64,000 nt of DNA from Chloroflexota bacterium. Lineage in GTDB: Bacteria > Chloroflexota > Limnocylindria > Limnocylindrales > CSP1-4. The stretch covers positions 84,312-148,311 of the forward strand of contig JACPOR010000021.1 of the NCBI GenBank assembly GCA_016191425.1. Direction: 5' to 3'. The translations under genes were made by a program, and so were the position numbers. Shown one piece after another: positions 1,400 through 10,987 of the stretch (within the stretch, counting starts at the first letter, position 1; each line of letters starts with the position of its first letter). The notes beneath the pieces were generated by a model. That model did not search any database, was not told where the DNA came from, and saw nothing but the letters and a program-made list of their open reading frames with translations.

Positions 1400-3349
1400 T
1401 CATCTCGGGCGTAGCGTCAGCGCAAGTCGCGTTGCGACCGGCGCCTCGAGCTTCTCGATGCGGATGGCGGTGGCCTTGAACTCGGCCGTGCCGGACTTCG
1501 GGTCCGTGGCGTCGATCGTGAGCAGGTTCGTCGCGACGTCGTCCTGGAAGTGGAGGGTCATGAAGGTCAGGCCGGGCCGGAGGCCCGCATCGACACGCAC
1601 GGGTACCTCGACCTCGCCGCGCCGCGAGACCACGCGAACCCGCTCGCCCTCGGCGAGCCCGAACGCCTCGAGATCCTCGGGGGAGACGTCGAGTGTCTCG
1701 CCCCGCCGGAGCGGTGACGTGAAGCTCCCCGTCTGGACGCCGGTGTTGTAGCTGTCGAGGCGGCGGCCGGTTGTCAGTCGGATCGGGAATTCGTCGTCCA
1801 GGCGATCCACCGGCGGGTCGTGATCCACCGGCACGAACGGCACGCGGCTGCCAGGCACCGGGTCCTCCCACAACCGCGAGTGGAGGAACAGCTCGCCGGG
1901 ATGGGTCTCGTCCCAGCACGGCCACTGAATTCCGCCGAGGGCCTCGAGGCGGGCATAGCTCATCCCGGCATGAACCGGCGATAGGGTCCGAAGCTCGTTC
2001 CAGATCCGCTCCGCCGACGGCTCACCCCAGTCGTGGCCCATCCGGCGGGCCAGCTCGAAGATGATCCACAGGTCGTCCCGCGCCTCGCCCGGCGGGTCGA
2101 GGGCCTTGCGGACCCGCTGGACCCGACGCTCCGAATTCGTGACGGTGCCCTCGGACTCCGCCCACGCGGCGGCGGCCGGCAGGACCACATCGGCCATCTC
2201 CGCGGTCGCGGTGAGGAACAGGTCCTGGACCACCATGAAGTCCAGCGAGGCGACGAGGCCTCTCGTTCGCGCCTGGTCGGCCTCGGACTGGACCGGATTC
2301 TCACCGATGACGTACGCGGCCTTGAGCTCGCCCCGCTCGATGGCGTCGAACATCTGGCTGAGATGCCAGCCCTTCTTCGAGGGAACCGGCACGCCCCAGG
2401 CGGCATCGAACTTCGCGCGGAGGGCATCCTGTTCGACGTGCTGGAACCCGGGTAGGCGATCCGGCAGGGCGCCCATGTCACCGCCGCCCTGGACGTTGTT
2501 CTGGCCCCGCAATGGGTTGAGGCCGCTGCCGTACCGCCCGACGTGCCCGGTCAGCGTCGCAAGGTTGATCAGCGCCAGGACGTTGTCCACCGCGTTGTGG
2601 TGTTCGGTGATCCCGAGGGTCCAGCAGATCATCGCCCGGTCGGCCTTGCCGTAGGCATGGGCGAGTTCGCGGATGGCGTCGGCTGGGACGCCGGTCTCGC
2701 GCTCGGCGTACTCGAGGGTGTACGACTCGACCTTCTCGCGGTAGGCCTCGAAGTCGAAGGTCGCCCGCTCGATGAACTCGGTGTTGGTCAGGCCGGCGTG
2801 GATGATCTCGCGCCCGACGGCATTCGCCAGCGCGATGTCGCTGCCGACATCGAGACCCAGCCACGTGTCCGACCATTCGGCCGAACTCGTCCGGCGCGGG
2901 TCCACGGTGAACAGACGGGCGCCGTTCCGGACCCCACGGAGCAGGTGATGGAAGAAGATCGGATGCGTCTCCCGGGCATTGCTGCCCCAGAGAATGATCA
3001 GATCGGTTTCCTCGACCTCACGATATGAGCTGGTTCCACCACCAGCGCCGAAGACGGTCGCCAGACCGGCGACAGACGGGGCGTGTCAGGTGCGGTTGCA
3101 GCTGTCGATGTTGTTGCTGCCCAGGACCACTCGCGAGAACTTCTGCGCCGCGTAGTTGACCTCGTTGGTCGCCTTGCTGCAGCTGAAGACGCCGAACGGA
3201 GCCGGTGCGTCGGCGCGGCGATGCGCCTCGGCGGCCCGAAACGCCGCCACGGTCCGATCGAGTGCCCGGTCCCAGGTCGCGGGACGGAGCTCGCCGCCCT
3301 TCGACTCCCGGACGAGGGGCTGGGTCAGTCTCAGGTAGTTCCTAGCCAC
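1400..3349 (-). CDS. fdhA: molybdopterin formate dehydrogenase alpha-type subunit with an in-frame UGA (selenocysteine); lacks the N-terminal Fe-S domain
   Basis: Track ORFs 1400..2905 and 3086..4060 share one frame and are separated only by TGA at 3088..3086. Read-through gives NNIDSCNRT-U-HAPSVAGLATVFGAGGGTSSY, matching the FdhF motif NNVDCCARVUHGPSVAGL. The C-terminal part is clearly MopB/FDH-like (RGQNNVQGGGDMGALP). The best start is GTG at 3349, preceded by AGGAGG with a 6-nt spacer. The first residues ARNYLRLTQPLVRESKGGELRPATWDRAL align to about residue 50 of E. coli FdhF. Confidence 0.8.
3050..3088 (-). promoter_or_regulatory. UGA recoding site plus SECIS-like hairpin
   Basis: mRNA sense reads UGA CAC GCC CCG UCU GUCGCC-GGUCU-GGCGAC. 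A perfect 6-bp stem (3073..3057) starts 12 nt after the UGA, with a GGUC-containing loop as in the E. coli fdhF SECIS (GCAGGUCUGC). Confidence 0.6.
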
Positions 3350-3541
3350 GGCGGGCCTCCTGCGGGTGCCGACGGGTCGAGTGTACGACGCCGCGGGTGG
3401 CGGGGGCCCGCCGCGCCACCGGGCTCGTCGAGGCGCCGCCGCGCCGGGGTCATCTGATCGGATTGGACCATCCCCTTGCCGCGACGGCAGCAGACACCTA
3501 TGGTTTCCCAGACCTCGCCGCATGCGAAGCAGGAGGAGTCG

Positions 3542-4105
3542 ATGGAAGCGGACGGCATCGCGTTCGTGGGACCTGGGTCGGAGTGGTTCTGGATCGCGCT
3601 CCAGTTCGCGGCCCTCGCGACGACTTTCTATGCCATCTATCGGCAACTGCAGCCGCAGCAGACCCAGATCCGCGACAACACGAAGGTCCTTCGCACCCAG
3701 GCCCATTATAACGCCCTGTTGCTCGCGCAGCGGCCATTCGAAATGCTGATCGAGAACGAAAGCCTGGCGAAGGTCGTCAACGTTGGGTATGCGACGCGCG
3801 AAGCGCTGAGCGATGACGACTGGTCGCGGTGCAGCTACTACACCTTCATGCAGTTCAACTCGTGGGAGTACCTGTACTACCAGAATCGTGATGGGTCGAT
3901 CCCCAAGGAGCTGTGGGTCGGCGCCGATGCGTACTTCAGGAGCCTGGTCGCGACAAGACCAGGCCTCGTCCGCTTCTGGTCGGAGTTCGAAGCGTCGTTT
4001 GACGAACCGTTTCGCTCCTACGTCACCGCGGAGTTCGCCGGAAGCCAAGACCACGGCCACGGCACTGGGGGAATCGGGCTTGCACCCCGCACCGCGTCAG
4101 GCTGA
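3542..4105 (+). CDS. hypothetical membrane-anchored protein
   Basis: ATG at 3542 is preceded by AGGAGGAG. The protein starts MEADGIAFVGPGSEWFWIALQFAALATTFYAIY (one TM helix), then a soluble domain rich in Y/W/F/N/Q. That composition is unlike the Arg/Pro/Gly shadow ORFs of this DNA. I could not recognise a family. The region is visibly less GC-rich. Confidence 0.55.
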   Translation: MEADGIAFVGPGSEWFWIALQFAALATTFYAIYRQLQPQQTQIRDNTKVLRTQAHYNALLLAQRPFEMLIENESLAKVVNVGYATREALSDDDWSRCSYYTFMQFNSWEYLYYQNRDGSIPKELWVGADAYFRSLVATRPGLVRFWSEFEASFDEPFRSYVTAEFAGSQDHGHGTGGIGLAPRTASG

Positions 4106-4133: not shown

Positions 4134-4160
4134 TCGCTTGGCGTGCGGGAATGTCACTCG
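4134..4160 (+). repeat. 27-nt dispersed direct repeat, copy 1 (TCGCTTGGCGTGCGGGAATGTCACTCG)
   Basis: Identical core to the copies at 4410 and 4883. It was noticed because three track ORFs all translate to SLGVRECH. Confidence 0.85.
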
Positions 4161-4236
4161 GTCGCGGCAGCGCCCACGGTTCGATTGAGGTGGTCCGTGT
4201 GCCACTTTGGTGGCCGACCCGAGCATCGCTCCCGGG

Positions 4237-4353
4237 TCAGTCTCTACGTTCGCGCGCCTTCTCGTGCCGAATAGCGAGGCGGACCGCCCAATAGACGAGT
4301 AGGAATCCGATCAGGAGCGGGATCGCGTAGACGATTAGAACGGCAAGTTCCAT
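4237..4353 (-). CDS. small hypothetical membrane protein (38 aa)
   Basis: Own translation: MELAVLIVYAIPLLIGFLLVYWAVRLAIRHEKARERRD, one clean TM helix plus a basic tail. It is below the ORF-track size cutoff and has no clear SD sequence. Confidence 0.35.
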   Translation of the reverse strand: MELAVLIVYAIPLLIGFLLVYWAVRLAIRHEKARERRD

Positions 4354-4409
4354 GGGCCGAGCATAGACCCCCTTTGGGGGCTGCTGTTCGAAGTAATCAA
4401 GGCGGACTC

Positions 4410-4436
4410 TCGCTTGGCGTACGCGAATGTCACCCG
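4410..4436 (+). repeat. 27-nt dispersed direct repeat, copy 2 (TCGCTTGGCGTACGCGAATGTCACCCG)
   Basis: Same orientation as copy 1, 276 nt downstream of it. Confidence 0.85.
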
Positions 4437-4882
4437 AACGCTCAATCAGGTGCGGGTGGAATGAGATCAGCTATTCGAGCGAGGCGCTCCGAAATGACGG
4501 CGATCCTATCCACAATTGCGGATAGTCGACCGCCAGATGCGCGAAGCTTGGCCGTGATCCCAGAGAGCCAACGTATCGTGCCGGCATGGCTGCGAGTGAC
4601 ATCAGCATTCCGGACGGATTAGAACTCCGTAGACCTGATCCATTACCGGGGAGAACGGCATCAAGACGAACGCACTCAGACGCGGGTCGGGACCCACGGT
4701 TGCATTCGGCGTTCCCAAACGGCCCGGTGCAGGTGCCGGAATTCGTCGTTCTCGACCTGTGCGGCCTCTCCGTCGCTCGTCTCGTTGGCTCACACTGTGA
4801 TCCTAGCGGGGCACGCAACCGAGTCTTCCCTTTTCGCAATGGGATCGTACGGCATGTCGATCGGGGGTTCGGGCCCCGCGAG

Positions 4883-4909
4883 TCGCTTGGCGTCCGCGAA
4901 TGTCACTCG
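4883..4909 (+). repeat. 27-nt dispersed direct repeat, copy 3 (TCGCTTGGCGTCCGCGAATGTCACTCG)
   Basis: Same orientation, 473 nt after copy 2. It ends 52 nt upstream of the GNAT start codon. Confidence 0.85.
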
Positions 4910-4961
4910 AGGAAACGCAGTTCGTGGACACTTCCGTTGCTGGGCTGCAACAATCGCCTCG

Positions 4962-5624
4962 ATGACCCACCCGTGGCCGCTCTTTGATCTGCGGGTCCGG
5001 ACGGCTCGACTCGAGCTGCGTCTGCCTTCAGACGAGGACCTCCTCGCGCTACTCAACGTGGCGCATGCGGGCATCCATGACCCGGATACGATGCCGTTCG
5101 GGTTCGCGTGGACCGATCTTCAGGGCCTTGAGTTCGACCTTGGGTTCCTGAAGTTCTTCTGGGGGGCACGAGCCTCGTGGACGCTGTCAGCCTGGCAACT
5201 GCCGCTCGCGGTGATCCTCCGCGATCAACCGATCGGCATCCAAGAAGTACGGGCCAGTGGCTTCCTCGAGCGACGAACAGTCGAGACTGGGTCGTGGCTG
5301 GGGAGCACCTGGCAACGGCAGGGATTCGGAACCGAGATGCGCGCCGCGGTTCTCCACTTGTCGTTCGAGGGCCTGGGCGCGATGGCTGCCATCTCTGCGG
5401 CGCTGGAAGGCAACGAGGCGTCCCGCCGTGTCTCGGAGAAGCTCGGCTATCGTCCGAACGGGATCGAATTTGTTGCCCCCCGTGGCCACGCTGTCAAGCA
5501 GGACCGATACCTGCTCAGCCGAGAGGACTGGCGCCCAGATCAGTGGTCAGTTCAGATCGAGCATCTCGAAACCTGTCGCGGTATGTTCGGGCTCTCGCCC
5601 TCCACGAAAGCCGCCGCCGAGTAG
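4962..5624 (+). CDS. GNAT family N-acetyltransferase (RimJ/RimL-like)
   Basis: From MTHPWPLFDLRVRTARLELRLPSDEDL; acetyl-CoA motif WQRQGFGTEMRAAVL; C-terminal KLGYRPNG. The upstream part of track ORF 4785..5624 covers repeat copy 3 and is not protein-like. Confidence 0.8.
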   Translation: MTHPWPLFDLRVRTARLELRLPSDEDLLALLNVAHAGIHDPDTMPFGFAWTDLQGLEFDLGFLKFFWGARASWTLSAWQLPLAVILRDQPIGIQEVRASGFLERRTVETGSWLGSTWQRQGFGTEMRAAVLHLSFEGLGAMAAISAALEGNEASRRVSEKLGYRPNGIEFVAPRGHAVKQDRYLLSREDWRPDQWSVQIEHLETCRGMFGLSPSTKAAAE

Positions 5625-5665
5625 CACTCCTGGTATGGCACGCGTCGGCATCAGTCAGTGTGCTG

Positions 5666-6736
5666 TCACCAGATGCTGACGCCGGTGCCTTCCTCGACTT
5701 GGCCGACGCGCCAGTGGAGAACACCTGCCGCACTCAGTGCGGATTCCACCGCCGTCAGGGTGTCTGACCGAACGGCCGCCAGCAGCCCGCCGCTCGTTTG
5801 CGGATCGTGGGCAAGGGTCACGAGCTCCGCCGCCACACCGGGTCCGAGGTCGAGCGAGCCGGTCACGAACCGGCGGTTGTGGGCCGCGCCCCCGGTCTCG
5901 ATCCCGGTGCGCGCCAGCTCGAGCGACCCGGCGAGGGCCGGCAGGGCGGAGGCGTCGAAGACGAAGCGGGTCCCGGAGGCGCGGGCCATCTCCAGGCCGT
6001 GACCGAGCAAACCGAAGCCCGTGACGTCCGTGGCCGCCGAAACGCCGGCATCGATGAACACCTCCGCGGCCGCTCGATTGAGCGTCTGCATCTGCTCGAC
6101 TGCCGTCCGCAGGTCATCCTCGCTTGTCCGCCTCTGGCGATGGCCACTGACCAGGATCCCGGTGCCCAGCCGTTTGGTCAGAAGCAGCTGGTCGCCTGGC
6201 TTCGCGCCGCCCTTTCGCAGGATGCGATCCGGGTGGATCGCGCCGATCACGGCCAGCCCGTACTTCGGCTCCGGGTCGCGGATGGTATGGCCGCCCGCGA
6301 GCGTTCCGCCCGCCTCGCGCACCTTTGCCGATGCGCCGGCGAAGATCTCCGCGAGGACGTCGCGCGGCAGGTCCTCGGGGAAGGCCGCGATCGACAGCGC
6401 GAACAGCACCCGACCGCCCATGGCGAAGACATCGGACAGGGCGTTGGCCGCCGCGATCGAACCGAACGTGTATGGATCGTCCACGAGGGGCGGAAAGAAG
6501 TCCAGCGTCCCGATGATCGCGAGGTCGTCGCTGACGCGATAGACCGCAGCGTCGTCGGGCGGGTTGAGACCGGCGATCAGGTTCCCCGGCGCGTCGGCCT
6601 CCGCTTCCGCACCCAGCCCGGCGATCGCCTCGGCGAGCAGGTCGGCACCGAGCTTCGCGGCACAGCCGCCACACTCGGTCAGCTCGGTGAGGCGGATCCG
6701 GGGCGCACTGCTGAGGGTAGGGACGTCCATGGCCAT
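5666..6736 (-). CDS. selD: selenide, water dikinase SelD (Cys type)
   Basis: The N-terminus LTELTECGGCAAKLG is the SelD Cys/Sec-Gly-Cys-x-x-Lys motif. The remainder has the AIR-synthase-like fold pattern (DAAVY..., GGHTI). Confidence 0.9.
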   Translation of the reverse strand: MAMDVPTLSSAPRIRLTELTECGGCAAKLGADLLAEAIAGLGAEAEADAPGNLIAGLNPPDDAAVYRVSDDLAIIGTLDFFPPLVDDPYTFGSIAAANALSDVFAMGGRVLFALSIAAFPEDLPRDVLAEIFAGASAKVREAGGTLAGGHTIRDPEPKYGLAVIGAIHPDRILRKGGAKPGDQLLLTKRLGTGILVSGHRQRRTSEDDLRTAVEQMQTLNRAAAEVFIDAGVSAATDVTGFGLLGHGLEMARASGTRFVFDASALPALAGSLELARTGIETGGAAHNRRFVTGSLDLGPGVAAELVTLAHDPQTSGGLLAAVRSDTLTAVESALSAAGVLHWRVGQVEEGTGVSIW

Positions 6737-6780
6737 GGTGCGATGATAGGGAGTCCGTGCGGACGGGCTAGCATCAACGT

Positions 6781-6877
6781 GGGAGTGGGTTCGGGCCGGT
6801 GCCCGGCCCGGTCTTCAACACCGGTGGCGCGGCGCTCGGCGTCGCGCGGTGGGTTCGACTCCCATGCGCTCCCGCCA
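6781..6877 (+). tRNA. selC: tRNA-Sec (anticodon UCA at 6815..6817), encoded CCA
   Basis: Hand-folded sequence: GGGAGTGG acceptor; 6-bp D stem UCGGGC/GCCCGG with a 4-nt loop; anticodon loop CUUCAAC; long variable arm GCGCGGC..GUCGCGC; T arm UGGG-UUCGACU-CCCA; then GCGCUCCC-G-CCA. The long extra arm, 6-bp D stem and UCA anticodon are diagnostic. A possible -10 box TAGCAT lies at 6769..6774. Confidence 0.85.
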
Positions 6878-6910
6878 CGCTCAGGCTCACTTCAGTGTCG
6901 CGCTCCTGCC

Positions 6911-7600
6911 ATGGTCACGTTCTCGCTCGCGCTCAGGAGGAAGCCCGCATTGGCTGAACAGCCGGAGGTTTCGGAACCGGTGTCGTCCGGCGGCGCAGTC
7001 GAGCCGAACTGGGACGAGTACTACCGACGCACCCTCGGTCGTGAGCCGCGCCCGCTCTTCCGCCGCGGCATCGCGGCGGCGACAGCGGCCGGAGTCGTGC
7101 CGGGCCAGGCGGTCGAGATCGGTTTCGGTGATGTGACGGAGACACTGACCCTGCTCGACGCCGGCTGGCGCGTGCTTGCCGTGGATCCCACGCCCGCGGC
7201 TGCGGAGGGCCTTCGGTCGCGCGTTCGCCCGTCGCATGCCGAGCGACTCGAGATCCAGGCGGCCCCAGCGCAGGACTCGTCGCTCGTCCCGTTCGATCTC
7301 CTGTATGCCGGGTATGCCCTGTCGTTTCTCGATCGGGATGGATTTCGTCGATTCTGGCTGACCGTCCGGGATCGTCTCCGGCCCGGCGGGTTCGTGGTCG
7401 TGAACATCTTCGGGGTCCGCGACACCTGGGCCGGCGCCTCGGACATGACGTTCGTCGATCGCGAGGAGGTCGACCGACTCCTCGAGGGCCTCGAGGTCGT
7501 CGAGATTCTCGAAGAGGACGCGGACGGCGACTCCTTCTCCGGCCCCAAGCACTGGCATGTCTTCGACGTCATCGCACGTCGCCCGGGGGCGAATTCGTGA
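6911..7600 (+). CDS. class I SAM-dependent methyltransferase, TehB-like architecture
   Basis: MVTFSLALRRK...NWDEYYRRTL...GQAVEIGFGDVTETLTLLDAGWRVLAVDPTPAAAEGL...FDLLYAGYALSFL...LRPGGFVVVN. It starts 33 nt after tRNA-Sec, and its stop overlaps the selA GTG (GTGA). Only the last 229 codons of track ORF 5798..7600 are real; the remainder is antisense to selD. Confidence 0.75.
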   Translation: MVTFSLALRRKPALAEQPEVSEPVSSGGAVEPNWDEYYRRTLGREPRPLFRRGIAAATAAGVVPGQAVEIGFGDVTETLTLLDAGWRVLAVDPTPAAAEGLRSRVRPSHAERLEIQAAPAQDSSLVPFDLLYAGYALSFLDRDGFRRFWLTVRDRLRPGGFVVVNIFGVRDTWAGASDMTFVDREEVDRLLEGLEVVEILEEDADGDSFSGPKHWHVFDVIARRPGANS

Positions 7601-9015
7601 CCGTTCCACGAGCCGCGCGGCCGCACCCGCCGAGCGTTGAGCGCGTCCTCGCCGTCGCCCGGTCGCGGGCCGGTGGGCGGGACCCGGAAGCCGTCGCGGC
7701 AGTCGCTCGCACGGTGGTCGACAGCGAGCGAGAACGGCTGATCACGGGGGGAACACCCCGTGACATCGAAACGCTCGGGGCGCTCGTCGTCACCGCGCTC
7801 GAGGCCTTCGATGGGCCCGGCGTACGCGGCCGGGAAGCGCCGGCCCTGCCAGCAGGCTTGACGCAGGTCATCAATGCGACCGGGGTCGTGGTCCACACCA
7901 ACCTGGGACGGGCCGCGTGGCCCGTCGCGGCCATCGAAGCCGCCCGGCTCGCGGCGGGAGGTGCGACCCTCCTGGAGCTCGATCGAGGAACGGGGCGGCG
8001 TGGCGCGCGATTTCGCGTCGCCCAGGAGCACCTGACCGCGCTCACCGGCGCCGAGGACGCGCTCATCGTCACGAACAACGCGGCCGCGATCACCCTGGCC
8101 GTCGGGCTGGCCGGGCGCGGCGGGGGCGTGGCCGTGTCGCGCGGGGAGCTCCTGGAGATCGGCGGCGGCGTGCGGATCCCGGAGATCCTGCGTCGCGCCG
8201 GCGTGCGCCTCGTCGAGGTCGGGACCACGAATCGGACGCGGGTCGCGGACTTCGAGGCGACCCTCGCGGATCCGAAGGCGAGGATTCGCGCAATCCTTCG
8301 CGTTCATCCCTCCAACTTCGTCCAGACGGGTTTCGTGGAAGCGCCGGACCCCGCCGGACTCGCCGCGTTGGCCCACCACCACGGAGCGATTGTCATCGAT
8401 GACCTCGGCAGCGGCGCGCTCCTCCCCACGGAACGCGTCGGCCTGGCCCACGAACCCATGCCGAGGGAACGCCTGGACGCCGGCGCCGACCTGGTGACGT
8501 TCTCCGGCGACAAGCTCGTCGGCGGGCCCCAGGCGGGGCTGATCGTGGGTCGCGGCGATCTGGTCGCGAGGCTTCGGCGCGATCCGCTGGCCCGGGCGAT
8601 GCGCCCTGACAAGACGATCCTCGCGGCTGTCGCGGCAACCCTTGCCCTCTACCGCGCTGGCCGAGCCCTGACCGCCATCCCCGTCTGGCGGATGATGGCC
8701 ACCCCGCTTCCCGACCTCCGGCGGCGGGCGGAGGCCCTGGTCGCCGCACTTCCCGCCGGCTCGGCCGAGGTGACCGAGCTCGATGCGACCGTCGGCGGCG
8801 GTTCGGCACCAGGTCAGTCCCTGGCTTCGATCGGCCTGGCTCTCACCCCCCCGGGCGGCGGGTCGTCCGCCAGCCTCGTCGCCGCGCTCCGATCCGGCGA
8901 GCCCTGTGTCGTCGGCCGGATCGAGCGTGATCGCGTCGTCCTCGACCTCAGGACGGTCGCGCCCGAGGACGACGCCGCGCTCGCCGGAGCCGTCACCCGC
9001 GCGATCGCGCGCTGA
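7597..9015 (+). CDS. selA: L-seryl-tRNA(Sec) selenium transferase SelA
   Basis: VINATGVVVHTNLGRA, FSGDKLVGGPQAG (PLP lysine region) and a length of 472 aa. Confidence 0.9.
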   Translation: MTVPRAARPHPPSVERVLAVARSRAGGRDPEAVAAVARTVVDSERERLITGGTPRDIETLGALVVTALEAFDGPGVRGREAPALPAGLTQVINATGVVVHTNLGRAAWPVAAIEAARLAAGGATLLELDRGTGRRGARFRVAQEHLTALTGAEDALIVTNNAAAITLAVGLAGRGGGVAVSRGELLEIGGGVRIPEILRRAGVRLVEVGTTNRTRVADFEATLADPKARIRAILRVHPSNFVQTGFVEAPDPAGLAALAHHHGAIVIDDLGSGALLPTERVGLAHEPMPRERLDAGADLVTFSGDKLVGGPQAGLIVGRGDLVARLRRDPLARAMRPDKTILAAVAATLALYRAGRALTAIPVWRMMATPLPDLRRRAEALVAALPAGSAEVTELDATVGGGSAPGQSLASIGLALTPPGGGSSASLVAALRSGEPCVVGRIERDRVVLDLRTVAPEDDAALAGAVTRAIAR

Positions 9016-9022
9016 GCCGGCG

Positions 9023-10987
9023 ATGACCGTTGTCGTGGGTACGGCCGGGCACATCGATCACGGCAAGACGACGCTGCTGCGGGCGCTCACCGGTATCGAT
9101 GCCGACCGCCTGCCCGAGGAACAGCGGCGTGGGATGACCATCGATGTGGGGTTTGCGTACCTCGATCTGGAGGACGGGACGTCCATCGACTTCGTGGATG
9201 TGCCGGGGCACGACGCGCTGATCGGCAACATGCTCGTCGGGGCCGGCGAGATCGACGCGGCGATGGTGGTGGTCGCCGCGGACGACGGGCCGCGGGCCCA
9301 GACGCTCGAGCATCTGGAACTCCTCGACGCTCTTGGAATCCGGTTGGGTATCGTCGTCATCACCAAGGCCGATGTGGTTGAGCCCGCGCGAGTCACGGAG
9401 GTCGCGGCGGCCACCGTCGAACTCGTTTCGCGCACGAGACTGGCCGGATCGCCGGTCCTCGTTGTCTCGGCGACGCGCGGGGACGGTGTCGCGGAGCTTC
9501 GCGCGGCGCTCCTCGCGCTGCGTGACCGCGTCCTCGCCGAGCGAGCCGTCGGGCCAGCGGGCCCACTCCGGCTCGCCATCGATCGGGCGTTCACGGTCCG
9601 TGGCCGCGGCGTTGTCGTCACCGGCTCGCTGCGAGGTGGTCAGCTGCAGGTCGGCGATTCGCTCCGCCTGGAGCCCGGTGGCATCGACGTACGCGTGCGA
9701 GGGCTCCATGTCCACCACGGGCCGGTGGACGCGGCCGGGCCGGGTCGCGTGGCGATCAACCTGGCCGGAGCCGATCTGGCCGCCTGCGCGCGCGGGACCG
9801 TCGTGACCTCGGGACCGGGGATCCAGGTGTCATCCCGCCTCCTGGTGGCTCTCGGGCCGCCGGTCGTTCTCGATGCCCCTGCCACGCGGCAGAATCGGCC
9901 GACGTGGCCGCCCGCCGATGGCGCGCGTGGCCGCATCCACCTCGGTACGGCGCAGGTCGACGCCAGCCTGGGCATGCGCGGTCGCGATGCGGTCGACCTG
10001 CCGGATGGACGGGTGACGGCGATCCTGCGGTTGAATGGCTCCATCCCAACCTTTGTGGGCGACCGCGGAGTTGCCCGACGGTCGTCCCCCGGTGACGTGG
10101 TGGCCGGTTTCCAGGTACTCGATCCCGAGCCCGCGCGCGCGGTCGCTCGGCGACGCGCCTCCCCGGAGCGTCTGGCGGTCCTGGCCGCCGCCGTCCGCGA
10201 CGCCGACGTGGATGCTGCTGCCGATGCGCTCATCGGGCTGCACGGAATCCTGAACGTTGATCGCGTCGAGACGATCGCCGCCTGCCTGGGGAGTAGCCCC
10301 CGAGAAGAGCGTGGATCGGTGGATCGTGTCGTCGTGCTCGCGCCCGACATTCGCACCGCCCTCCAGAACGCCGTCCTCGCGGAGATCGAGGCCTTTCATC
10401 GGGATCACCCGCTGGAATCCGGCATCCCGCTCGGGACGCTTCGACCGATCCTGGGAACTGTGCTGCGCCGCCTCACGACGATCGGGCGCCAGGACGGCAC
10501 GGTTGCAGACGGCGCCATCGGGGTTGTCCTGGACGACCTCGCCGGCCGACACAAGCTGGCCCGCGATGGCGATCGCCTCCGGGATCCGGGTCGAACGATG
10601 GGGCCGCCGCCGGAACTCCAGGCCGCGATGGCCCGGCTGGAGGCGGCCCTCAACGTGCCGGCTCCGCCTGCCCTCTTCGATGCCGCCCGCCTCGCCGGCT
10701 GCCCCGCCGAGGGGATCCGCACGCTCGAAGCCGCGGGCCGGATTGTGCGCGTCGAGGCTGACCTCGCCTGGGCGGCGCCTTCGTTCCACCGACTCGCGGC
10801 GACGGCGCTGGCGATCGCACGCCGCCAGCCGCTGACTCCAGCGGCACTGCGGGATGCGACGGGCACGAGCCGTCGCTACGTGATGCCGCTGATCGAGGAT
10901 CTCAACCGGCGTGGGATCCTGGCCCGAACGCCGGCCGGCCACGTGCCCGGCCCCCGGGCGCCGCGCGAACCGGCAACGGCGAAATGA
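9023..10987 (+). CDS. selB: selenocysteine-specific translation elongation factor SelB
   Basis: MTVVVGTAGHIDHGKTTLLRALTGIDADRLPEEQRRGMTIDVGF (GTPase G1-G2), DVPGH, ITKAD, followed by a long C-terminal winged-helix region. It starts 8 nt after the selA stop. Confidence 0.9.
   Translation: MTVVVGTAGHIDHGKTTLLRALTGIDADRLPEEQRRGMTIDVGFAYLDLEDGTSIDFVDVPGHDALIGNMLVGAGEIDAAMVVVAADDGPRAQTLEHLELLDALGIRLGIVVITKADVVEPARVTEVAAATVELVSRTRLAGSPVLVVSATRGDGVAELRAALLALRDRVLAERAVGPAGPLRLAIDRAFTVRGRGVVVTGSLRGGQLQVGDSLRLEPGGIDVRVRGLHVHHGPVDAAGPGRVAINLAGADLAACARGTVVTSGPGIQVSSRLLVALGPPVVLDAPATRQNRPTWPPADGARGRIHLGTAQVDASLGMRGRDAVDLPDGRVTAILRLNGSIPTFVGDRGVARRSSPGDVVAGFQVLDPEPARAVARRRASPERLAVLAAAVRDADVDAAADALIGLHGILNVDRVETIAACLGSSPREERGSVDRVVVLAPDIRTALQNAVLAEIEAFHRDHPLESGIPLGTLRPILGTVLRRLTTIGRQDGTVADGAIGVVLDDLAGRHKLARDGDRLRDPGRTMGPPPELQAAMARLEAALNVPAPPALFDAARLAGCPAEGIRTLEAAGRIVRVEADLAWAAPSFHRLAATALAIARRQPLTPAALRDATGTSRRYVMPLIEDLNRRGILARTPAGHVPGPRAPREPATAK

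Follow-up and report, generated by a model that had tools for sequence, protein, structure and literature searches.

Integrons, the standard example of how bacteria store and reshuffle single genes, depend on a tyrosine recombinase, IntI, that acts on folded single-stranded sites, and clusters of attC sites that lack an integrase are known as CALINs. In phage serine integrases the attL and attR products are inert without a directionality factor. The Enterococcus cassette chromosome is grouped with the composite islands of the staphylococcal cassette chromosome (SCC/SCCmec) type (CcrAB/CcrC). The Ccr enzymes of SCC/SCCmec are large serine recombinases; elements become stacked behind an attB located within the 3′ end of rlmH, the att core is repeated, and some of the elements are passengers that lack a recombinase (PMC11470126). 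Here we analyse a stretch of 64,000 nucleotides from a bacterium of the Chloroflexota order Limnocylindrales (assembly GCA_016191425.1, contig JACPOR010000021.1, positions 84,312 to 148,311; hereafter the window), in which a 27-nt direct repeat, TCGCTTGGCGTNCGNGAATGTCACNCG, occurs three times beside selD, the gene for selenophosphate synthetase. From comparison with related genomes, we consider it probable that the repeats are attP-type half-sites of a large serine recombinase (LSR), each marking the 3′ end of a small cassette, and that the cassettes are stacked behind an attB-type site lying on the selD stop codon.

The three copies lie on the plus strand, at exactly 4134-4160, 4410-4436 and 4883-4909, and the window holds no other; 100 dinucleotide-preserving shuffles of the window gave no match at all. 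An initial annotation, made from the letters alone, had left three options for the repeat: it could be an operator or a site bound by some other protein, a site of recombination, or the conserved terminus of a small mobile cassette. What follows supports the second and the third, and does not favour the first. Outside about 28 nt the flanks of the three copies are unrelated, which excludes a simple local triplication, and further copies occur in relatives. Copies 1 and 3 do share the weaker upstream similarity that had been remarked on (GGYCCCGYRRG), but this position carries no information across the 224 unique sites of the family. A half-match reported at about 45252 is due to chance: a weight matrix built from 58 sites scores the three window copies at 36-39 bits and finds nothing of 5 bits or more elsewhere in the window. 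Folding of the single-stranded DNA gave z-scores of -1.3 to +0.6 and no structure common to the copies, consistent with the motif having no fold. It had also been set apart from repetitive extragenic palindromic elements, attC sites, CRISPR repeats and the ends of insertion sequences, and that exclusion holds; what the motif does fit is the half-site anatomy of LSR att sites.

Pattern searches of the genome and its relatives, which the annotation had suggested, extended the repeat well beyond the window. Four further, diverged copies are spread over three other contigs of the assembly to which the window belongs (G000; 2.38 Mb in 56 contigs, 92% complete). With a sequence-only model built from the 58 sites, the element was found in 54 of 66 genomes of the genus (Limnocylindria, Chloroflexota), at 1-71 copies per genome. 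At the level of the class it is nearly restricted to this family, occurring in 8 of the 43 genera sampled.

The 27-mer is the local form of a 28-nt junction element which, on the gene strand, reads GTGACATT-N5-ACGC followed by TGAsyGA or CCAAGCGA. The consensus of the 224 unique sites on that strand, the reverse of the one on which the repeat was first written, is tCgcGTGACATTCgCc.ACGCTGActGA. Each site is bipartite and 24-28 nt long, with an outer block, GTGACAT, and an inner block that is either ACGCTGAsyGA or ACGCCAAGCGA, the variant that G000 shares with a few other genomes. The 5-nt stretch separating the blocks is nearly unconstrained, which accounts for the variable positions seen among the window copies. 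Information is confined to the 28 nt and falls to background level straight after the terminal GA. At 2.4 bits, the final A ranks with the best-conserved positions, which would be expected if GA were a crossover dinucleotide that has to match between recombination partners.

The spacing between the blocks falls into two main classes. A scan for the outer block, k bases and the inner block returned 205 sites with a 5-nt spacer and 22 with none, together with four at 6 nt and one at 4 nt; no other spacing occurred. We refer to the 5-nt-spacer form as the P (attP-type) half-site and to the 0-spacer form as the B (attB-type) half-site. A strict 0-spacer site is always the first in gene orientation, in 20 of the 20 arrays that have one, and is never internal, so that the grammar of an array is B-P-P-P. 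We also scored arrays with a B model obtained by deleting the spacer from P sites, which makes it independent of the observed B sites; its background over 300 windows has a 99th percentile of 9.3 bits and a maximum of 13.2. With this model, 13 of 18 further arrays showed, 350-2050 nt before their first P site, a B-type site of at least 13.4 bits. Core genes carry the B sites on their stop codons, selD in the window and xseB in other genomes, or, in the case of thrB, directly after the gene. At neither B sites nor cassette junctions is there a second conserved half, the information beyond GA being at most 0.17 bit per position over the 224 sites.

The connection to a recombinase comes from loci in which an LSR gene adjoins an array. 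At one such array (G013:C47) the adjoining gene (L046:11486-12877) encodes a 464-aa protein whose Resolvase, Recombinase and Zn_ribbon_recom domains identify it as a large serine recombinase; homologues of its clade are present in 12 of the 66 genomes. Before the LSR start codon lies a composite site, GTGACAnC+ACGCTGAsyGA followed by TCTAAGCGT-GTGGT-AATGTCAC, in which a 0-spacer half is succeeded by an inverted 5-spacer half that abuts the start codon. The composite site is found in at least eight loci of the LSR clade (seven from the genus, together with the records L079 and L155), and it is the only place where two half-sites stand inverted around a central dinucleotide. The repeat of the window corresponds to one half of this inverted site, in keeping with the recombination-site option. 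Homologues of the LSR in actinobacteria (about 44% identity) have no such sites nearby.

The LSR gene is followed in some loci by a convergent 86-aa open reading frame (ORF), and every LSR locus that extends far enough has a convergent ORF of about 260 aa matching PF23343 (rolling-circle Rep). In six loci these genes are followed by a conserved 'first site' with a 5-nt spacer (gtCATGCTG..GTGACAkC-AnnAC-ACnCyGACTGA) and then by cassettes with ordinary P sites; cassette arrays lie downstream of the LSR in at least six of the loci. The upstream neighbours differ from locus to locus (xseB, selD, thrB and others), and this leads us to conclude that the LSR-Rep unit is itself inserted at B-type sites. 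Both of its arms have a spacer of AnCAC type, unlike the spacers of cassettes. Three loci deserve separate mention. In L063 (G072:C46) a Mutator-family transposase gene (PF00872) lies at 5255-6073, between the Rep gene and the first site. L066 (G005:C11:486963-488327) holds an LSR pseudogene with three in-frame TGA codons and frame breaks, and has kept the B/P′ site and one downstream cassette. L050 (G005:C8:117200-125000) has 16 P sites between two cyanophycin-synthetase-like genes; one of its internal sites is identical to the first site of the LSR platform (GTGACATCACGACACGCCGACTGA), and no LSR is present in that array, which suggests a trace of an LSR-Rep unit that was lost or excised.

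The two spacing classes have a counterpart in structural work on serine integrases. When the integrase of Listeria phage A118 (LI) is bound to one half of attP, that half-site measures 25 bp and the motif bound by the zinc-ribbon domain (ZD) occupies positions 16-24, while in attB this motif is 5 bp nearer the centre, at 11-19 (PMC3783163). Counted from the centre between G and A, the outer block GTGACATT spans positions 16-23 of P sites and 11-18 of B sites. For this count the centre was set by the symmetry of the composite site before the LSR gene (ACGCT GACTG/ATCTA AGCGT, the slash marking the centre), and it coincides with the GA at which conservation ends in all 224 sites. The likeness to phage-type att sites (A118/LI, Bxb1, phiC31) extends to a half-site of about 24-25 bp with an inner motif for the recombinase domain (RD) and an outer ZD motif, to a ZD motif shifted 5 bp inward in attB, for which the equivalent here is the chromosomal 0-spacer form on core-gene stop codons, and to a non-palindromic central dinucleotide, here GA. 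An integrated LSR-Rep unit is likewise flanked, by B/P′ on one side and a P site on the other. The difference is that canonical sites have two recognisable halves, whereas the cassette sites and B sites have one conserved half, so that recombination would yield products still able to serve as substrates.

The units between sites behave as cassettes. Copies in the genus form co-oriented clusters spaced 0.2-1.5 kb apart, with up to 16 in the arrays that we retrieved, and the junctions separate unrelated units, each usually taken up for the greater part by one ORF; the units have a median length of 563 nt. The longest ORF is antisense to the motif as first written in 142 of 176 cassettes. About 17%, that of the GNAT acetyltransferase gene in the window included, have their longest ORF on the other strand, with the orientation of the site kept. 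A cassette gene starts 0-40 nt after the preceding site. Read in reverse complement, the motif has a TGA in each reading frame, and cassette genes often terminate at one of the three. The cargo is very diverse and integron-like (58 Pfam families in 141 ORFs), and includes SMI1/KNR4, DMP19, several DUFs, SnoaL-like, glyoxalase and GNAT proteins, aminoglycoside nucleotidyl- and phosphotransferase-type enzymes, metallo-beta-lactamase-fold proteins, and many lipoproteins and small membrane proteins. The third-position GC of cassette ORFs is mostly 0.6-0.85; since the flanking core ORFs had been filtered at 0.80 or above, we draw no argument from composition.

Most of the 176 cassettes are unique, but clear homologues occur in different arrays. 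A first all-against-all comparison of 56 cassettes found none in common, and shared ones appeared after about 120 more had been added. A cassette protein of G013:C51 is 87% identical to one in a G050:C12 cassette and 72% identical to one in a G020:C125 cassette; another, from G013:C20, matches a G013:C36 cassette at 86% and a G050:C12 cassette at about 76%. DNA similarity between homologous cassettes is limited to the cassette, and the 450 nt on either side are unrelated except for the site itself. The mobile-cassette option of the annotation is borne out to this extent: the motif bounds single-gene units in arrays across the genus, and homologous units are found among unrelated neighbours in different arrays and genomes.

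The selD locus allows these arrays to be compared at one position. SelD was found in 60 of the 66 genomes. Where the 3′ end of the gene carries a B-type site (G000, G062, G072, G075, G066 and G048), P sites follow, and the cassettes behind it differ among the genomes; within 1.5 kb of about 18 selD ends that have no B-type site, there are no P sites. The gap between selD and fdhA measures 119 nt in G050, 0.9 kb in G004, 2.3 kb in G000 and 5.9 kb in G062, a series that compares empty with occupied states of the same locus. As the two genes are only 119 nt apart in G050, the array of the window splits an otherwise tight selD-fdhA pair. No DNA synteny with relatives was found around the window because the genus is too diverged, and the comparison was therefore made through the SelD and FdhA proteins.

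The layout of the window locus is given in Table 1. A fourth site, which the initial annotation had overlooked, has the same two blocks without a spacer and places the GNAT gene itself inside a cassette. It scores 22.8 bits with the spacer-deleted B model, against the 99th percentile of 9.3 bits in the background. The TGA stop codon of selD (5666-5668) falls in its outer block, and its predicted crossover dinucleotide, GA, corresponds to TC on the plus strand at 5651-5652. We propose that it serves as the entry point of the array, by analogy with attI or attB.

Table 1. Features of the selD cassette array in the window (positions counted from the first letter of the window)
Feature	Position	Strand	Details
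B-type (attB-like) half-site	5651..5669	-	GTGACAGC+ACACTGACTGA, zero spacer; two-block scan
GNAT acetyltransferase gene, 220 aa	4962..5624	+	Pfam Acetyltransf_3
P-type half-site P3 (copy 3 of the repeat)	4883..4910	-	cgaGTGACATT-CGCGG-ACGCCAAGCGA; 38.8 bits
P-type half-site P2 (copy 2 of the repeat)	4410..4437	-	37.4 bits
38-aa ORF, single-pass membrane peptide	4237..4353	-	MELAVLIVYAIPLLIGFLLVYWAVRLAIRHEKARERRD; sequence and cassette ORF scan
P-type half-site P1 (copy 1 of the repeat)	4134..4161	-	35.9 bits
selD (selenophosphate synthetase), core gene	5666..6736	-	ORF; 3′ end carries the B-type site

Along the minus strand the order is selD with its B site, the GNAT cassette ending in P3, a decayed cassette ending in P2, the 38-aa peptide cassette ending in P1, ORF209 and fdhA, so that the window holds a small array of three cassettes without a recombinase. 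The B-proximal cassette (4883-5650) carries the GNAT gene, which lies between the B site and P3 and runs opposite to most cassette genes. The closest relatives of this gene in the genus, at 40-51% identity over full-length matches, lie outside arrays; another Acetyltransf_3 gene is the cargo of an array cassette elsewhere. In the middle cassette (4410-4882) the ORFs are short, arginine-rich or fragmentary, with no convincing intact gene, and the two that were tested had no Pfam match. One of the ORFs in this interval, of 63 aa (4602-4793, minus strand), ends in ...FVLMPFSPVMDQVYGVLIRPEC and resembles the start of a real protein, truncated. From its sequence this cassette appears to hold a decayed gene. 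The last cassette (4134-4409) has the 38-aa membrane peptide as its cargo, in the usual cassette orientation, and the genes beyond P1, ORF209 and fdhA, are not bounded by further sites.

Several neighbouring features complete the description of the locus. ORF209 (3476-4105, plus strand) encodes 209 aa with one hydrophobic segment and no Pfam match, and lies between P1 and fdhA in convergent orientation to the array; as it has no counterpart between selD and fdhA in G050, it may be an old insertion that now lacks its site. A selenocysteine locus surrounds the array (1400-3349 on the minus strand, and 5666-10987), with fdhA, selD, tRNA-Sec (6781-6877), a methyltransferase gene, selA and selB; fdhA has an in-frame TGA, following ...CNRT. 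At 202-1313, just upstream of fdhA, is a gene pair for a Phd/YefM-type antitoxin and a PIN (VapC) toxin, itself preceded by a 9-nt tandem repeat. Elsewhere in the assembly, the four other P-type sites (C5:72558, C25:73469, and C51:40492 and 41445) are solitary or paired and lie between core genes with no clear B-type partner, although C51 has a weak B-like sequence after a gene for an FMN-dependent dehydrogenase. They are probably the remnants of small arrays.

How might such arrays be built? We propose a 'serine integron', a scheme to which we give an even chance of being right: an LSR carried on a small rolling-circle replicon would insert and remove single-gene cassettes, each with one attP-type half-site, at a reusable attB-type acceptor half-site on the stop codon of a core gene. 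The LSR would bind half-sites through its recombinase and zinc-ribbon domains and would cut at GA. A circular cassette, made up of the P half, GA and its own 5′ end, would recombine with the B site at GA; the new cassette would then land directly behind the core gene, with the B site regenerated before it and the P half left at its 3′ end. Because the products would again comprise one B site and one P site, the B site would be reusable, and the array would grow at its B (selD) end as an integron does at attI. The reverse reaction could release the B-proximal cassette or a block of cassettes. With only one recognisable half per site, the self-inhibited attL/attR state may not form, and we speculate that this is what would make the docking site reusable. 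The LSR-Rep unit would be the autonomous member of the system, its two ends forming a two-armed P/P′ attP when it is circular, and the cassettes would be passengers that need the LSR in trans, plausibly from the LSR-Rep replicon, which could also carry cassettes between cells.

A number of points weigh against assigning the arrays to the LSR, and some of them also favour the main rival explanation, in which the arrays are built by another recombination system and LSR-Rep is a parasite that uses array-type sequences as its attachment site; the repeats would then bound cassettes without being the substrates on which this LSR moves them. The LSR clade is sparse, being present in 12 of 66 genomes against 54 of 66 for the sites, and several array-rich genomes, G050, G076, G052 and G018 among them, have none. 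By tblastn we found no cognate LSR in G000 (92% complete): the sole serine-recombinase-like sequence, at the end of a contig (C22:274-882), matches at 26% identity over 217 aa and has no sites nearby. Studied large serine integrases require two half-sites per att site. One half-site per junction is too little for the characterised enzymes, and our scheme assumes recombination between a half-site and any sequence. The LSR-Rep unit itself resembles one inserted element at the head of an array. No free circular LSR-Rep element with a reconstituted P/P′ attP was found in metagenome contigs, where the only close relative of the unit is again the integrated B/P′ form. No convincing B site was seen in 5 of the 38 arrays whose 5′ end is in view. 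Between the members of the one close pair of cassettes (89% identical in DNA), the P site at the 3′ end has changed at about 8 of 24 positions, most of them within the spacer, so that the sites differ more than the cassette bodies and more than simple co-inheritance would predict.

We nevertheless regard construction by another system as unlikely. The cassette sites contain both blocks of the LSR's own arms and show the division into 0-nt and 5-nt spacing that is typical of LSR attB and attP, and no other recombinase is consistently adjacent to the arrays. The B-first grammar also holds in arrays without an LSR. A search with PF00589 in seven array-bearing genomes found two to four tyrosine recombinases in each, far from the arrays; none lies beside an array and none is on the contig of the window.

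A different kind of explanation would make the motif a regulatory signal that travels with small accessory genes, acting as a promoter or operator, in RNA processing or in translational coupling, with no part in recombination. Its position invites this idea: it ends 0-40 nt upstream of the next start codon, carries TGA in three frames, often has GAGG just after it, and stands between cassette genes most of which are co-oriented, as in an operon. We hold it to be improbable. Neither a -10/-35 arrangement nor any structure is seen in the motif, the DNA beyond the last site of an array does not belong to a cassette, and arrays open with the distinct 0-spacer form on a core-gene stop codon. The roughly 17% of cassettes with their longest ORF on the other strand retain the orientation of the site, the composite site has an inverted copy abutting the recombinase start codon, and conservation ends sharply at GA without a taper. 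Related candidates were rejected on their own terms. One was a leaderless promoter with a start codon, as an ATG or GTG is present in the motif and a 21-aa ORF beginning at copy 3 reaches the GNAT start in an ATGA; it was discarded because the cassette genes of relatives are encoded on the opposite strand and the essential A is missing at the -10 position. Variable bases at wobble positions had suggested that the motif encodes a conserved peptide in frame, SLGVRECH, but those bases proved to be the unconstrained 5-nt spacer. The repeat is also not a duplicate of an attachment site in tRNA-Sec, to which it has no similarity.

Least probable of the rivals is that the sites are substrates of a tyrosine recombinase, either Xer/dif-like, as in the pdif modules of Acinetobacter, or an atypical integron attC: a length of about 28 nt with a variable central stretch at first suggested an 11-6-11 dif-like layout, the architecture and cargo of the arrays are integron-like, and the right block, ATGTCA, presumably resembles the XerD arm of actinobacterial dif, but the two arms of a site do not form an inverted repeat (5-6 of 11 positions by eye), there is no attC-like folding and no conserved GTTRRRY core among the sites, none of the two to four tyrosine recombinases per genome stands beside an array, simple patterns found no canonical dif in the genome, and the 0/5 spacing classes and the link to an LSR are unexpected for Xer or IntI sites.

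If the LSR does act in this way, several consequences would follow. Cassette capture would have evolved independently on a serine-recombinase chassis, and the usual one-way logic of serine integrases would have been turned into a reusable docking site, with each product keeping one half-site type. The system would explain the exchange of accessory genes, resistance- and immunity-type genes among them, in the little-studied Limnocylindria of freshwater, groundwater and soil. It would also supply a natural LSR that acts on half-sites and has a landing pad open to repeated use, something that genome engineering has sought. The window is of value for bringing to light a system that is family-wide and whose site grammar is clear and can be tested. 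A full-text search of the literature returned no description of serine-recombinase cassette arrays of this type, nor of integron-like arrays in Limnocylindria, and this is apparently an undescribed integron-like gene-capture system of freshwater and soil Chloroflexota.

How does it compare with the systems introduced at the outset? To our knowledge, phage integrases do not insert elements serially at a single attB. Acinetobacter plasmids have pdif modules, in which sites of about 28 bp likewise flank small accessory modules in different contexts, but those sites are inverted 11-6-11 XerC/XerD sites that alternate in orientation, whereas the sites described here are co-oriented single half-sites linked to a serine recombinase. 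SCC/SCCmec is the nearest mechanistic relative. In both cases a core gene has the attB in its 3′ end (rlmH in SCC; selD, xseB or thrB in the present arrays), units accrete in tandem with co-oriented copies of the att core between them, att sites are nested, and passengers lack a recombinase of their own. SCC units, however, comprise many genes and tens of kb, in contrast to single genes of about 0.5 kb in arrays that reach at least 16 units. The lineage here is Chloroflexota, and the enzyme is presumably only distantly related to Ccr. We know of no account of a P/B grammar with a reusable B site for SCC.

Integrons and CALINs are the closest parallel in function. Their cassettes, like those described here, are co-oriented, mostly promoter-less and mostly single-gene, with a 3′ site each and a distinct acceptor where the array begins. 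In both, the cargo is very diverse, most of it has no known function, and it includes GNAT, glyoxalase, SnoaL, aminoglycoside-modifying and immunity-type genes; many arrays lack a recombinase, and content varies between relatives. In contrast to integrons, no IntI or other tyrosine recombinase is adjacent, and the linked enzyme is an LSR. The sites are unstructured double-strand half-sites of about 28 nt instead of attC sites, imperfect palindromes of 57-141 nt that fold as single strands and have R″/L″/L′/R′ boxes (R″/R′ being RYYYAAC/GTTRRRY), and the acceptor lies on the stop codon of a core gene, not beside an integrase gene. The arrays resemble integron arrays and CALINs functionally, yet lack the features that define them, IntI and a folded attC. 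The same outcome as in integrons appears to have been reached here by a different enzyme family and a different site logic.

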